NCBI RefSeq assembly: GCF_044324785.1
Contig: NZ_CP172127.1
Origin: Escherichia coli
Lineage (GTDB): Bacteria; Pseudomonadota; Gammaproteobacteria; Enterobacterales; Enterobacteriaceae
DNA: 64,000 nt
Direction: 5' to 3' (one strand)
The position numbers and the translations under genes are program-made. The notes beneath the pieces are model-generated. The model was not told the DNA's origin. It made no database searches and worked only from the letters and a program-made list of their open reading frames with translations. Positions 2,690-26,742 of this stretch are shown here, piece after piece; position 1 is the first letter of the stretch; the number at the start of each line of letters is the position of its first letter.

Positions 2690-4840
2690 TTAACGCCGCC
2701 GACGGCGTGGGGATTTCGTTTTTTCTTTCTTTTTAACTATACCTTCAGGGACTTCCGGTTGCTCTATCGGAAATACCGGTAATGCATCCAGTAGCCGCTT
2801 GCCATAATTTTTGGTCAGCAAGCGTTTGTCGTAAATCACCACTTCGCCCCAGCAACCGTGGCTTCGAATCAGTCGCCCAACCTGCTGAATCAGGTTAAAC
2901 GAGGCGCTCGGCAGGCTTTGCACCTCAAACGGATAGCGGTTGAGGCTTTTCAGCCATTCTCCTTCGGTGATCACCACCGGGCTGTCGATGGGCGGAAAAG
3001 CGATTTTGTGGATATGCACCTGGCTGAGCAGATCGCCTTTCAAATCAAGCCCTTCGGCAAATGACTGCAAGCCCACCAGCACGCTACGCTCACCGTTGGC
3101 AACGCGTTTGCGGTGCAGTTCAACTAAACGGTAACGCGGCTGATCGCCCTGCACCAGCAACATCAGGCGTAAATCCGTCACATAGTCGAGAAACCGCTGC
3201 ATCGCCCGTCCGCTGGCAAACAGTACCAACATACCGAGATGTTTTTTGCTCTCCACCTGTTTACGGAAAAAGGCCGCCATTTCGGCAATGTGCTGCTCTT
3301 CGTTGTCGATGGAAGGCTCAACGCGCATCCGGGGAATAACAATTTTGCCCTGTTCGCAGTGGTTAAAGGGCGAATCCAGCGCCACAAAGCGGTCGCCCGC
3401 TTTCTCTTTCAGCCCGCTCATCTCCTGCAAACGCGAAAAACTGTTCAGCGAACGCAAGGTTGCGGAAGTGACAATAATGTGCGGAATACTGCGCCACAGC
3501 AGCCTTTCCAGCTGATCGCTGACACGAATACCCACGCAGTGAAACCAGAGATGCAGCTGCCCTTCGCGCTCTTCCCGCGTCGCCCATTTGGTCACCGGCG
3601 CACCGGAAGATTGCGCCAGAGACGCCAGCCGCCAGAGTTTGCTTTGCGCCTCGAACATCCCCAGCGCGCGGTTCATCTGCAAAATCAACCGATGCAGACG
3701 TACAATGTCATGGCTGCCGGTTTTCTCACTTAAATCGTTAAGAAATAACTCCGCCAGACCACGCAGCATCTCGGTGAGTTTTGCCAGCCGTTGGCAGATC
3801 TCCAGCACTTCATCAGGCAGTTCGCCCATCGCAAAACGGTGCTCTGCCTCCTGCCCGGCAGGCATGTAGAGGTTGAGAATGTTGTTTAACGAGGCGATAA
3901 GCTCATACAACTCTTCACAATGGGCATTCAAACGCTCGGGGATCGCCAGCGGAGGGATGGTCTTCGGGCGAAACTGCTCCATACAGGTAGCGACCAGTTT
4001 CGTGAACAAGTCCAGCTGTAGCCGATACCAGGGCGCGGTGATTTCGGCGCTCATCTCCAGCGCATCCCGTGCCACATCCGGCAGGTGATGACCTTCGTCC
4101 AGCACCAGCAGTAAATTTTTCGGGTCAGGCAATACGGCTTCGCTTTCCATCGCCGCCATCACCAGCGCATGGTTTGCCACTACAACTTCCGCTTCCTGAA
4201 TTTCCCGACGAGCGACAAAAAACGGGCATTCGCGATAGTAATAACAGTTGCGGTTGAGGCAGCTGGCTTTGTCGGTACTCAACCGACGCCAGAGATCATC
4301 ATCAATGGCGATATCCGTATGATCGCGCAGACCATCCCATTTATAAGTGTCGAGATCGCCCTTCAACTTTGCACAACGCTTTTGCTCTTCCTGATTGTTC
4401 GGCGTCAGCTCGTCGTCAAGAAACGCCAGCAGATCCTGTTGCGTGGGTTCAGTACTGGCAAGCGCTGTCAGATTACGCGGGCAAACGTAGCGCCCACGCC
4501 CAAAAGCGGCAGTGAATTTAAGATCGGGAATGATCTTTTTCAGCAATGGTAAATCTTTGCTGTAGATCTGATCCTGCAACGCCACGTTGGCGGTACTCAC
4601 CACCAACGTTTTTTGCTCTTCGCGGGCAATGGCGATGCCGGGAATCAAATAGGAGAGCGTTTTCCCAACGCCGGTGGGTGCTTCAATCGCCAGATGCCGC
4701 CCTTCTTCTCCGGCCAGCGTTTTGGCGACGTCCGCAATCATCTGCCGCTGCGGCGCACGGGGAATAAAGTCGGGGATCTGTTCCTGAAGCGCCTTATACC
4801 AGGCGGCAATTTGCGCTTTAAGCGCGGCGGTTAATGCCAT
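2690..4840 (-). CDS. dinG: ATP-dependent DNA helicase DinG
   Basis: 716-aa ORF with helicase motifs (GVGKT Walker A, DEGH box) and cysteine-containing region; a LexA box lies upstream. Confidence 0.95.
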   Translation of the reverse strand: MALTAALKAQIAAWYKALQEQIPDFIPRAPQRQMIADVAKTLAGEEGRHLAIEAPTGVGKTLSYLIPGIAIAREEQKTLVVSTANVALQDQIYSKDLPLLKKIIPDLKFTAAFGRGRYVCPRNLTALASTEPTQQDLLAFLDDELTPNNQEEQKRCAKLKGDLDTYKWDGLRDHTDIAIDDDLWRRLSTDKASCLNRNCYYYRECPFFVARREIQEAEVVVANHALVMAAMESEAVLPDPKNLLLVLDEGHHLPDVARDALEMSAEITAPWYRLQLDLFTKLVATCMEQFRPKTIPPLAIPERLNAHCEELYELIASLNNILNLYMPAGQEAEHRFAMGELPDEVLEICQRLAKLTEMLRGLAELFLNDLSEKTGSHDIVRLHRLILQMNRALGMFEAQSKLWRLASLAQSSGAPVTKWATREEREGQLHLWFHCVGIRVSDQLERLLWRSIPHIIVTSATLRSLNSFSRLQEMSGLKEKAGDRFVALDSPFNHCEQGKIVIPRMRVEPSIDNEEQHIAEMAAFFRKQVESKKHLGMLVLFASGRAMQRFLDYVTDLRLMLLVQGDQPRYRLVELHRKRVANGERSVLVGLQSFAEGLDLKGDLLSQVHIHKIAFPPIDSPVVITEGEWLKSLNRYPFEVQSLPSASFNLIQQVGRLIRSHGCWGEVVIYDKRLLTKNYGKRLLDALPVFPIEQPEVPEGIVKKKEKTKSPRRRRR

Positions 4841-4854
4841 GAGAAAACCTGAAA

Positions 4855-4874
4855 TACTGTATAAACAGCCAATA
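4855..4874 (-). promoter_or_regulatory. dinG SOS (LexA) box, non-canonical
   Basis: Minus strand reads tattggctgtttatacagta, which is the dinG LexA operator as I recall it, 15 bp upstream of the dinG ATG. Confidence 0.7.
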
Positions 4875-5010
4875 TTGTGGCATTTTTCGGTTTTCAGGGG
4901 TAATGGTTTTTCTGTTTCTGGAAAGCGGCTCGCAATAACGTTTTCTGGAAGTGAGATTTTCCCGCAGCAGAAGAAACATCATTGCGTAGTAAAAGACAAT
5001 GCACGCAGGC

Positions 5011-5292
5011 TTATTGCGCTGGTGGCCATTGCAGGGCGGTATGCAAAACACGCAGTACCGAGAGCGTATCGCCCTCCACTTGGTAGATCAGCACATAATG
5101 CGGTCTGACAACGGCTTCATGAGTGCCAGCGACTCGTCCGGCCCGATACATCTGCGGGCGTTCACAAACCTGTTCCGCAATGGCTTCAAATTGATTATCA
5201 AGGGCAATTGCCGCTTGCGGATTATCTTTACTGATGTATACCATGATTTGCTCCCTGTCAGACAGGGACATTGGCTTCCATTCCAGACGCAT
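5011..5292 (-). CDS. ParE/RelE-family type II toxin (ParE2-like)
   Basis: 93-aa ORF with ParE-like features (C-terminal ...LIYQVEGDTLSVLRVLHTA). Its ATG overlaps the upstream gene's stop as TAATG. Confidence 0.75.
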   Translation of the reverse strand: MRLEWKPMSLSDREQIMVYISKDNPQAAIALDNQFEAIAEQVCERPQMYRAGRVAGTHEAVVRPHYVLIYQVEGDTLSVLRVLHTALQWPPAQ

Positions 5293-5732
5293 TAATCCCC
5301 CTTCAACAAGGCTTTTTTACGGGCAGCAAATAGACTTTTGGCCTCTTCATGAGAGAGCGCTGGGCGTGGATCGTCAATGGCGGCCTGCACCTGCTCTCGA
5401 AACCAGGCATCATACGCGGCAGCTTCATGAGCTCGTTTTAATGCCTCTGCCCTGTCAGGTCGGGTCGTTTTCTTCTGACCATCCGGGTCGTAATTAGAGG
5501 CGTCGACTTCAAACCGGGCAATACCAACATCTTTCAGGTAGTTGACAACCGTTTCCAGCCGTTTGAACAGGCGGATTTGCCGACTGCGTTGTGCTGCAAG
5601 AGGCCGTTCAGTGTGGCCGTATTTCACGGTCAACGACCAGCCTCCCTGGGTGCCAATAACGTGTGCTGCATCCACTACGCCAGACTCAACCAGTTTATGT
5701 AAGGTTGAGTGATCGATCGTTTCTGGTGCCAT
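5292..5732 (-). CDS. Putative antitoxin: roughly 100-aa N-terminal domain of unknown function fused to a PaaA2/ParD-like C-terminal tail
   Basis: 146-aa ORF translationally coupled to the toxin. The C-terminal AYDAWFREQVQAAIDDPRPALSHEEAKSLFAARKK resembles the PaaA2-type ParE-neutralising motif as I remember it; I do not recognise the N-terminal domain. Confidence 0.55.
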   Translation of the reverse strand: MAPETIDHSTLHKLVESGVVDAAHVIGTQGGWSLTVKYGHTERPLAAQRSRQIRLFKRLETVVNYLKDVGIARFEVDASNYDPDGQKKTTRPDRAEALKRAHEAAAYDAWFREQVQAAIDDPRPALSHEEAKSLFAARKKALLKGD

Positions 5733-5760
5733 AATGCGCTAACCTCTTTGTATACAGCAT

Positions 5761-5824
5761 GCAATTTATAATTAAAGATAGCGCAATTAATAATTAAAGA
5801 TAGCGCAATTAATAATAAATTGCA
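5761..5824 (-). promoter_or_regulatory. Putative promoter/operator of the toxin-antitoxin operon: tandem 22-bp direct repeats carrying four AATTGC half-sites
   Basis: aattaaagatagcgcaattaat occurs twice in tandem, with a flanking GCAATT-N7-AATTGC palindrome, 30 to 90 bp upstream of the antitoxin start. Confidence 0.45.
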
Positions 5825-5909
5825 TTTTTTGATCGTAAATTGTCCAGGGTGAAATTGCGGTAGAAAGAGACTTGTTGCGAAGATGCCGGGCATCGCCCGG
5901 CATAAAAAG

Positions 5910-7271
5910 TTACTGCGCAGCGGCAGGTTTACGCGGACGGCGGCGACGTTGTTGTTCGCCTGCCGGTTTGGCATCGCCGAGACGACGAGACGGTTTTTCT
6001 GCAGGTTTTGCGCTTGCAGATTTTGCACCACCTTCAGCGCGGCGTGGTTGCTGTTGACCGCGACCACCGCCTTGTCCACGACCGCCGCCACGTTGCTGGC
6101 GACCATTCTGGATCGGTTCGGCTTTGATTGACGGGTCCGGCTCATAGCCCGGAATCGCAATGCGCGGGATCTCTTTTTTCAGCAGTTTTTCGATATCACG
6201 CAGCAGTTTGTGTTCATCCACACACACCAGCGATAACGCTTCACCGGTGGCTGCGGCACGACCGGTACGCCCGATACGGTGGACATAATCTTCCGGTACG
6301 TTTGGCAGTTCATAGTTGACCACGTGCGGCAGCTCTTCAATATCCAGGCCGCGCGCAGCGATGTCAGTTGCCACCAGTACACGAATATCGCCCGATTTAA
6401 AATCGGCCAGCGCACGGGTACGCGCACCTTGCGATTTATTACCGTGGATCGCCGCACTGCGGATGCCATCTTTATTGAGCTGTTCAGCCAGATGGTTAGC
6501 GCCATGTTTGGTACGGGTAAACACCAGCACCTGCTGCCAGTTCCCTTTCCCAATCATGTGCGACAGCAATTCGCGTTTGCGTTTCTTATCAACAAAGTGA
6601 ACATGCTGGGTCACCTGATCAGACGCGGTATTGCGGCGTGCCACTTCGATTTCCAGCGGGTTGTGCAGCAGTTTTTCCGCCAGGTTTTTAATATCGTCAG
6701 AGAAAGTGGCGGAGAACAACAGGTTCTGGCGCTTCGCTGGCAGCTTAGTCAACACACGACGGATATCGTGGATAAAGCCCATATCGAGCATGCGGTCAGC
6801 TTCATCGAGGACGAGAATTTCAACCTGATCCAGCTTCACTGCATTCTGATGTTCCAGGTCCAGCAAACGTCCCGGCGTTGCCACCAGCACATCAACGCCA
6901 CCGCGCAGCTTCATCATCTGCGGGTTGATGCTGACGCCACCAAACACCACCAGCGAACGAATGTTCAGGTATTTGCTGTAATCACGGACGTTTTCGCCAA
7001 TCTGCGCCGCCAGTTCACGGGTCGGGGTAAGAATGAGCGCACGTACCGGACGACGCCCTTTGGCGTGCGGCTGGCGAGTGATCAGGTGTTGCAACAGCGG
7101 CAGCGTAAAGCCCGCTGTTTTGCCGGTACCGGTCTGGGCACTGGCCATCAGGTCGCGGCCCTCCAGCACCGCAGGGATCGCCTGCTGCTGAATAGGGGTG
7201 GGTTCACGGTAACCCTGCTCGGCAACGGCGCGCAGGATATCAGGGCTTAAACCCAAAGAATCGAAAGACAT
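5910..7271 (-). CDS. rhlE: ATP-dependent RNA helicase RhlE (DEAD-box)
   Basis: 453-aa ORF with DEAD-box motifs ([23 protein letters not shown]) and an Arg/Gly-rich C-terminal tail. Confidence 0.95.
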
Positions 7272-26292: not shown

Positions 26293-26310
26293 AACAAATT
26301 ATACTGGATA
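26293..26310 (-). promoter_or_regulatory. uvrB SOS (LexA) box
   Basis: Minus strand reads aactgtttttttatccagtataat, a CTGT-N8-CAGT box, about 70 bp upstream of uvrB. Confidence 0.7.
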
Positions 26311-26742
26311 AAAAAACAGTTCCTCACCATAATATTTCTGTTACAGCGTAAACTCCGCTGTCAATCATGAGCAAAATTTACTCTGTGGCGAGATAAAACT
26401 CCGGCCTTACCGGGTTATCCCCAAAGCAACGGCTTTTTTAACATTTGTCAAGATGAGTGATGACAGTTTTATGGCAAGAGATGCCTCTTCAGTGACTGCC
26501 ATTGCAATTATCTAACCAGTTAAAAAATAAAAGATATTTCTTTAAGCCGTCTTTAACGCCAATTCGCGTGCAAGCCGCGTATTCTCTCGCTTGCCTCGTG
26601 TTTTCTAACTCTAATACACATGGTTATCCACAGGAATAGTGGATAACTGTCTGCAGCCCCTATCCCCCGCCGCCTGGGCAATTCCCACATTCATCGCATG
26701 ATGCGGAAGTAAAATTTTTTTCGTGATTATTTTAGAATTTAA

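Follow-up and report, generated by a model that had tools for sequence, protein, structure and literature searches.

A ParE-like toxin paired with an antitoxin that carries a PaaA2 motif is known from the paaR2-paaA2-parE2 system of a cryptic prophage in E. coli O157:H7, in which the antitoxin gene comes first and the two genes overlap (PDB 5cw7, 3zbe; PMC8630535). Other toxin-antitoxin (TA) modules are physically tied to a LexA-controlled gene, among them dinB-yafN-yafO-yafP, tisB/istR and symER, and these have the SOS box in their own promoter or operon (PMC8265657). The gene dinG is the first of the LexA-regulated dinG-ybiB operon (PMC10123104, PMC3009722), and its promoter is an early SOS promoter that is fully derepressed by a low UV dose (PMC5999292). 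The region upstream of dinG differs between strains. K-12 has the order rhlE > < ybiA - dinG-ybiB, where ybiA encodes a NADAR glycohydrolase (PMC11125620) and is transcribed away from dinG, so that the question of read-through into dinG does not arise. In O157:H7 the slot is occupied by espX2, a 2-kb type III effector gene that is co-directional with dinG and separated from it by a 283-bp spacer, with no classical terminator before the dinG promoter.

The window, which is the whole 64,000-nucleotide stretch of E. coli DNA analysed here, carries a two-gene TA cassette in this slot. The parts of the locus are all of familiar kinds, namely a module of ParE/PaaA2 type, the SOS box of dinG and a terminator-less junction. 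Compared with paaR2-paaA2-parE2, the cassette sits in the chromosome between rhlE and dinG, outside a prophage, shows low sequence similarity to ParE2 and PaaA2, and has no recognizable separate PaaR2 regulator but an additional N-terminal domain of ∼100 aa in the antitoxin. It also differs from the SOS-linked TA modules, since the SOS box is located downstream of the module and controls the next gene. The espX2 allele is similar in that a foreign gene occupies the slot, in the same direction as dinG. We found no literature on the cassette or its position, and its RefSeq annotation is generic. The sequence, ORF calls and Pfam matches place rhlE, the antitoxin gene, the toxin gene and dinG on the minus strand (4/4), as the initial annotation had stated, and the positions it gave for the toxin stop, the SOS box and the 136-bp gap between them (4875-5010) agree exactly with the sequence (Table 1). 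The distance from the toxin stop to the dinG start is 170 bp, made up of a cassette-specific tail of 71 bp and a native part of 99 bp. A mechanically called ORF at 4818-5051 (77 aa), which crosses the hypervariable tail, was not counted as a gene.

Table 1. Features of the rhlE-dinG interval and its flanking genes (window coordinates).
Feature	Position	Strand	Description
dinG	2690..4840	-	716 aa; ORF; Pfam Helicase_C_2, DEAD, DEAD_2; RefSeq annotation of homologous loci
Native dinG upstream region	4841..4939	-	shared with K-12 and O157:H7; almost invariant
Weak long-range pairing	4848..4898	-	CCUGAAA (4898-4892) with UUUCAGG (4854-4848), then UUUUCUCAUG
dinG LexA operator (SOS box)	4855..4874	-	TATTGGCTGTTTATACAGTA; sequence, compared with the published box
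Putative dinG promoter	4856..4883	-	-35 ATGCCA (4883-4878), 16-nt spacer, -10 TACAGT (4861-4856)
C-rich, G-poor untranslated tract	4878..4955	-	78 nt (C 23, G 11); candidate Rho loading (rut) region
Stable imperfect stem-loop without U-run	4929..4989	-	outer stem 4986-4974 with 4943-4931; straddles the cassette/native junction
Cassette-specific 3' tail after toxin stop	4940..5010	-	71 bp; hypervariable
Best (poor) terminator-like candidate after toxin	about 4996..5032	-	tail CUUUUACU / UCUUUUAC; -12.1 kcal/mol; d = -21
ParE-family toxin	5011..5292	-	93 aa; stop TAA 5013-5011
Antitoxin	5292..5732	-	146 aa; ORF
22-bp tandem repeat, unit TTATTAATTGCGCTATCTTTAA	5761..5816	-	2.5 copies just downstream of the cassette -10; presumed operator
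Promoter-like site of the cassette	5812..5839	-	TTTACG-16-TATTAT; 9/12 matches
rhlE 3' hairpin	5883..5903	-	AUGCCGGGC-GAU-GCCCGGCAU; tail CUUCG, without U-run; cassette junction at 5881/5882
rhlE	5910..7271	-	ORF; Pfam; RefSeq annotation of homologous loci

The toxin matches the Pfam family ParE_toxin (PF05016) with 51.7 bits against a cutoff of 23, and the ParE2 chain 5cw7_B in the PDB with E = 2e-7. The C-terminus of the antitoxin (residues 104-130) matches PaaA2 (PF21217; 40.9 bits, cutoff 27) and the PaaA2 structure 3zbe (E = 2e-4). Both ORFs are intact, and the stop codon of the upstream antitoxin gene overlaps the toxin start (TAATG). Toxin family, PaaA2 motif, gene order and overlap would together place the pair among the type II modules of the ParE/PaaA2 family. 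The N-terminal ∼100 aa of the antitoxin (residues 1-100) are without a Pfam match; there is a weak likeness, under the cutoff, to NCBIfam NF041544, "ParC family partition-associated protein" (33 bits). This N-terminal domain may be a DNA-binding stand-in for the separate PaaR2 regulator. In the strain DETEC-S792, the RefSeq toxin is shortened to 77 aa although its 93-aa ORF is complete.

Autorepression is the norm for promoters of type II TA modules. The promoter of the cassette carries repeats and inverted repeats, and its autorepression and strength presumably follow the behaviour of the family. The unit TTATTAATTGCGCTATCTTTAA is present in 2.5 copies in the window and in 1.5 copies in all 7 other alleles examined; the surplus copy may serve as a further operator and so change autoregulation. 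A search of the cassette for LexA-like boxes gave just matches with GC-rich spacers, and direct SOS control of the TA module was rejected. The toxin of the window has three substitutions, E18V, A42V and E47Q, that the 7 other alleles lack, while the antitoxin has the same protein sequence as in most of these. Across alleles the antitoxin protein is almost invariant despite 2-4% divergence of the DNA, which indicates purifying selection.

In K-12 W3110, ybiA occupies exactly the position of the TA module in the window. Homology to K-12 stops at 5882 next to rhlE and begins again at 4939 next to dinG, which delimits a cassette of 942 bp (4940-5881), and this cassette has evidently replaced the divergent ybiA between the same junctions. 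It was found in 324 of 5,426 complete E. coli genomes, once in each and always in the chromosome; the best DNA match to the whole cassette among these genomes is just about 96%. The position between rhlE and dinG was the same in all six E. coli genomes that were fetched, and the cassette is also present in E. whittamii with identical junctions. With espX2 of O157:H7 as a third allele, whose dinG-side junction lies within 4 bp of that of the cassette, the rhlE-dinG interval is a hot spot where three kinds of cargo (ybiA, TA cassette, espX2) are swapped next to a conserved dinG control region. A search with 80 bp of cassette tail and hairpin retrieved this locus only in E. coli (324 genomes, one place each) and gave no match in plasmids; being confined to one locus, the segment is neither a repeat element nor the end of a mobile element. 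Plasmid homologues of the cassette are ∼70% identical and match the coding part alone, and thus no donor context or donor terminator is recoverable from them. Related modules in Erwinia, Pantoea, Serratia, Photorhabdus and betaproteobacteria have unrelated neighbourhoods and do not lie beside dinG.

Eight alleles of the cassette locus were compared, namely the window, six from E. coli and one from E. whittamii. Variation at the locus is highest in the 71-bp tail, with 22 variable sites and a nucleotide diversity of 0.137, and lowest in the 99 bp of native sequence, with a single variable site and a diversity of 0.0025 (22/71 versus 1/99, Fisher p = 8e-9). The latter value is far below the diversity of the dinG coding sequence (0.019). 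This contrast indicates that most of the tail is unconstrained and that the dinG control region is strongly constrained. The 99 bp, SOS box included, are 100% identical to K-12. This near-invariant segment, which the three alleles and E. whittamii have in common, includes 65 bp upstream of the SOS box.

The SOS box TATTGGCTGTTTATACAGTA ends 14 bp upstream of the dinG ATG and agrees in every letter with the experimentally characterised asymmetric dinG box, which PMC8265657 quotes from Lewis & Mount 1992 and PMC3009722 also lists. In E. whittamii the box has one change (TAATGG). A further perfect CTGT-N9-CAG match, CTGTTTTTTTATCCAG, is found on the minus strand at 26304-26319 of the window and has the same sequence as the uvrB SOS box listed in PMC3009722. 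The putative dinG promoter has 8/12 consensus matches, under the threshold of the promoter scan, and is our own reading of the sequence; as placed here, it would be overlapped by the LexA operator. No sigma-70-like promoter was detected on either strand within 4875-5010.

According to the initial annotation, no stable hairpin followed by a U-run lies between the toxin stop and the SOS box. Consensus scanning, folding and scoring of hairpins with U-tails (d-score) all failed to find a hairpin with a U-run in this 136-bp gap. The consensus scan of 4600-6100 returned 3 terminator-like sites against a chance expectation of 2.3; of these, just a 5-bp stem across the stop codon lies in the spacer (5019..5003; -4.9 kcal/mol, z = -0.06). 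The d-score, with a formula of the type of d'Aubenton Carafa et al. 1990, was computed after 34 gene ends of the window and served just as an internal, relative yardstick against the terminators of the same window. On this scale the obvious terminators, such as those after ybiC (+42) and ybiB (+22), range from +15 to +42, and the dinG-ybiB junction, which is known to lie within an operon, has -4. The best candidate after the toxin (5031-4997), at -21, is a branched, AU-rich hairpin that reaches into the last toxin codons. The U-rich tract expected directly 3' of an intrinsic terminator does not follow any stable stem of the spacer. An Rfam scan of 4500-6200 (E <= 10) gave chance-level matches alone, which speaks against a known RNA family in the spacer.

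The missing terminator is real yet commonplace. No candidate with d > 0 follows 21 of the 34 gene ends, the espX2 allele reaches at best -10.6, and the related modules in other genera have no strong terminator behind them (best d = 4.5); ending without a terminator is thus a habit of the family and not peculiar to this locus. The hairpin after rhlE was also described correctly as lacking a U-run: it is real, at 5903..5883, with a folding energy of -16.9 kcal/mol (z = -4.7) and the tail CUUCG, and its d of +15.7 is due solely to the strong stem. K-12 rhlE has the same hairpin, likewise without a U-run, followed by two REP elements that are missing in the window.

The initial annotation was right about the U-run but overlooked a stem-loop at 4929-4989 that is stable (-21.8 kcal/mol, z = -3.6) and was matched in folding energy by 1 of 200 shuffles. 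This structure is followed by AGCCGCUUUCC and hence by no U-run, and compared with a compact, G+C-rich terminator stem it is long and imperfect, with a base rich in AU and GU pairs. It is kept in all eight alleles, at -16 to -31 kcal/mol, and the stem itself does not vary. A covariation test found no compensatory changes across the 8 alleles, a result that is uninformative either way. The 5' arm has fewer variable sites than the rest of the tail (1/13 versus 21/58), a marginal difference (p = 0.05).

Next to the stem-loop, and partly within it, lies the C-rich tract (4955-4878), whose C/G ratio of 2.09 is at the 99th percentile of all 78-nt windows on the minus strand. Rho-dependent termination calls for an untranslated RNA stretch of ∼80 nt or more that is rich in C and poor in G, a permissive criterion, and the spacer offers 170 untranslated nucleotides. 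Judged by base composition alone, the tract would plausibly favour Rho-dependent 3'-end formation. It is native to the dinG upstream region in every allele and has therefore not evolved for such a role. Closer to dinG, a weak long-range pairing (CCUGAAA/UUUCAGG; -12.3 kcal/mol) is followed by UUUUCUC, and the equivalent site in the locus L003 has d = -12.5. The pairing could form solely in RNA begun upstream of the dinG promoter, that is, in read-through transcripts. Its UUUCAGG arm contains the dinG Shine-Dalgarno AGG, so that such transcripts might translate dinG poorly, although any role of the pairing is speculative.

Taken together, the sequence data suggest that the 170-bp interval between toxin and dinG is an evolutionary seam, an ordinary gene-replacement junction without a designed regulatory link. 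As the genes share a strand and no hairpin with a U-run separates them, transcription could continue from the cassette into dinG. We lean, with little more than even confidence, towards a small, leaky read-through of little physiological weight on top of the dinG promoter, which is itself under LexA control. A polymerase leaving the toxin gene would meet no intrinsic terminator; few polymerases would leave the cassette, however, since its promoter is presumably autorepressed, and we infer that most cassette transcripts would end before dinG or just inside it. The untranslated, C-rich and G-poor RNA would be a plausible substrate for Rho, and the stem-loop would then likely represent the 3' end to which the RNA is trimmed after Rho action. 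LexA on its operator might in addition be a roadblock to the sparse polymerases. LexA is reported to make RNA polymerase pause in vitro, and LacI roadblocks in vivo work best when promoter flux is low (PMC4132739), from which it follows that bound LexA could limit read-through. The suggestion in the initial annotation that LexA occupancy affects the 3' end of the module would, by this analogy, be more sensible when reversed. We take the early derepression of dinG to mean that LexA is a weak and leaky roadblock at this operator. The leak could also be larger than assumed here, if translation from the dinG start (4840) shields read-through RNA from Rho.

A stricter view, which we regard as possible but distinctly less probable than a small leak, is that the two units are completely insulated, with cassette transcripts ending efficiently in the spacer and dinG expressed from its own LexA-controlled promoter alone. 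Termination could then occur at the stem-loop acting as a non-canonical terminator, at the weak site 5032-4996 with its tail CUUUUACU, or through Rho. The hairpin present in all alleles, the composition of the 170-nt untranslated RNA and a dinG promoter and operator left untouched and 100% identical to K-12 are all in keeping with insulation, as is the literature on LexA roadblocks (PMC4132739). Rho terminators, however, are usually partial, and only about 160 nt separate the toxin stop from the dinG ribosome-binding site. At an intrinsic terminator, E. coli RNA polymerase ordinarily requires a U-tract, and the lack of one behind any stable stem also counts against insulation. The question would be moot if the cassette were transcriptionally silent or decaying in this strain, with nothing reading into dinG. 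The three toxin substitutions unique to the window among the 8 alleles, the duplicated putative operator repeat and the shortened toxin annotated by RefSeq in one strain would fit such decay, but both ORFs are intact with the usual TAATG overlap and the antitoxin is under purifying selection, and we consider it improbable.

We give slightly less credence still to an evolved coupling, in which the cassette and dinG-ybiB form a conditional operon and loss of antitoxin leads to derepression and to LexA-independent DinG and YbiB, so that a ParE toxin that poisons gyrase would be tied to a helicase clearing replication-transcription conflicts. The arrangement is co-directional and terminator-less, as expected of an operon, its junctions are the same in E. 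coli and E. whittamii, and SOS-controlled TA modules are known, such as yafN/yafO in the dinB operon and tisAB (PMC8265657). Against it, the tail between the two units varies more than any other part of the locus (0.137), the cassette has no LexA-like box, and dinG retains its own promoter behind a 170-bp spacer. Neither conserved adjacency across taxa nor the absence of an internal promoter is found, given the unrelated neighbours of homologous modules elsewhere, the promoter of dinG and the other genes, divergent ybiA or espX2, that fill the slot in most E. coli. The arrangement is instead a by-product of the replacement of ybiA by a mobile cassette, and homologous modules not beside dinG are terminator-less as well. 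A more specific form, which we find the hardest to credit, would have the conserved stem-loop and LexA bound 55 bp downstream act as a conditional stop, such that LexA cleavage or derepression of the cassette allows read-through into dinG-ybiB as a built-in damage-control link; when the gyrase-targeting toxin is activated, the helicase that resolves replication-transcription conflicts would be boosted as well.

In the accessible part of the Term-seq and nanopore supplementary data, no mention of rhlE, dinG or ybiA was found. If the small leak that we favour turned out to be substantial, the ∼6% of sequenced E. coli that carry this cassette would make DinG and YbiB partly free of control by LexA, the amount of dinG expression would vary with the state of the TA module, and a swap of cargo would have rewired the regulation of a neighbour. 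The main value of the locus lies in the documented hot spot with three alleles directly upstream of a strongly conserved SOS promoter. Among the cassette-bearing strains, dinG is marked as frameshifted by RefSeq in strain 222.
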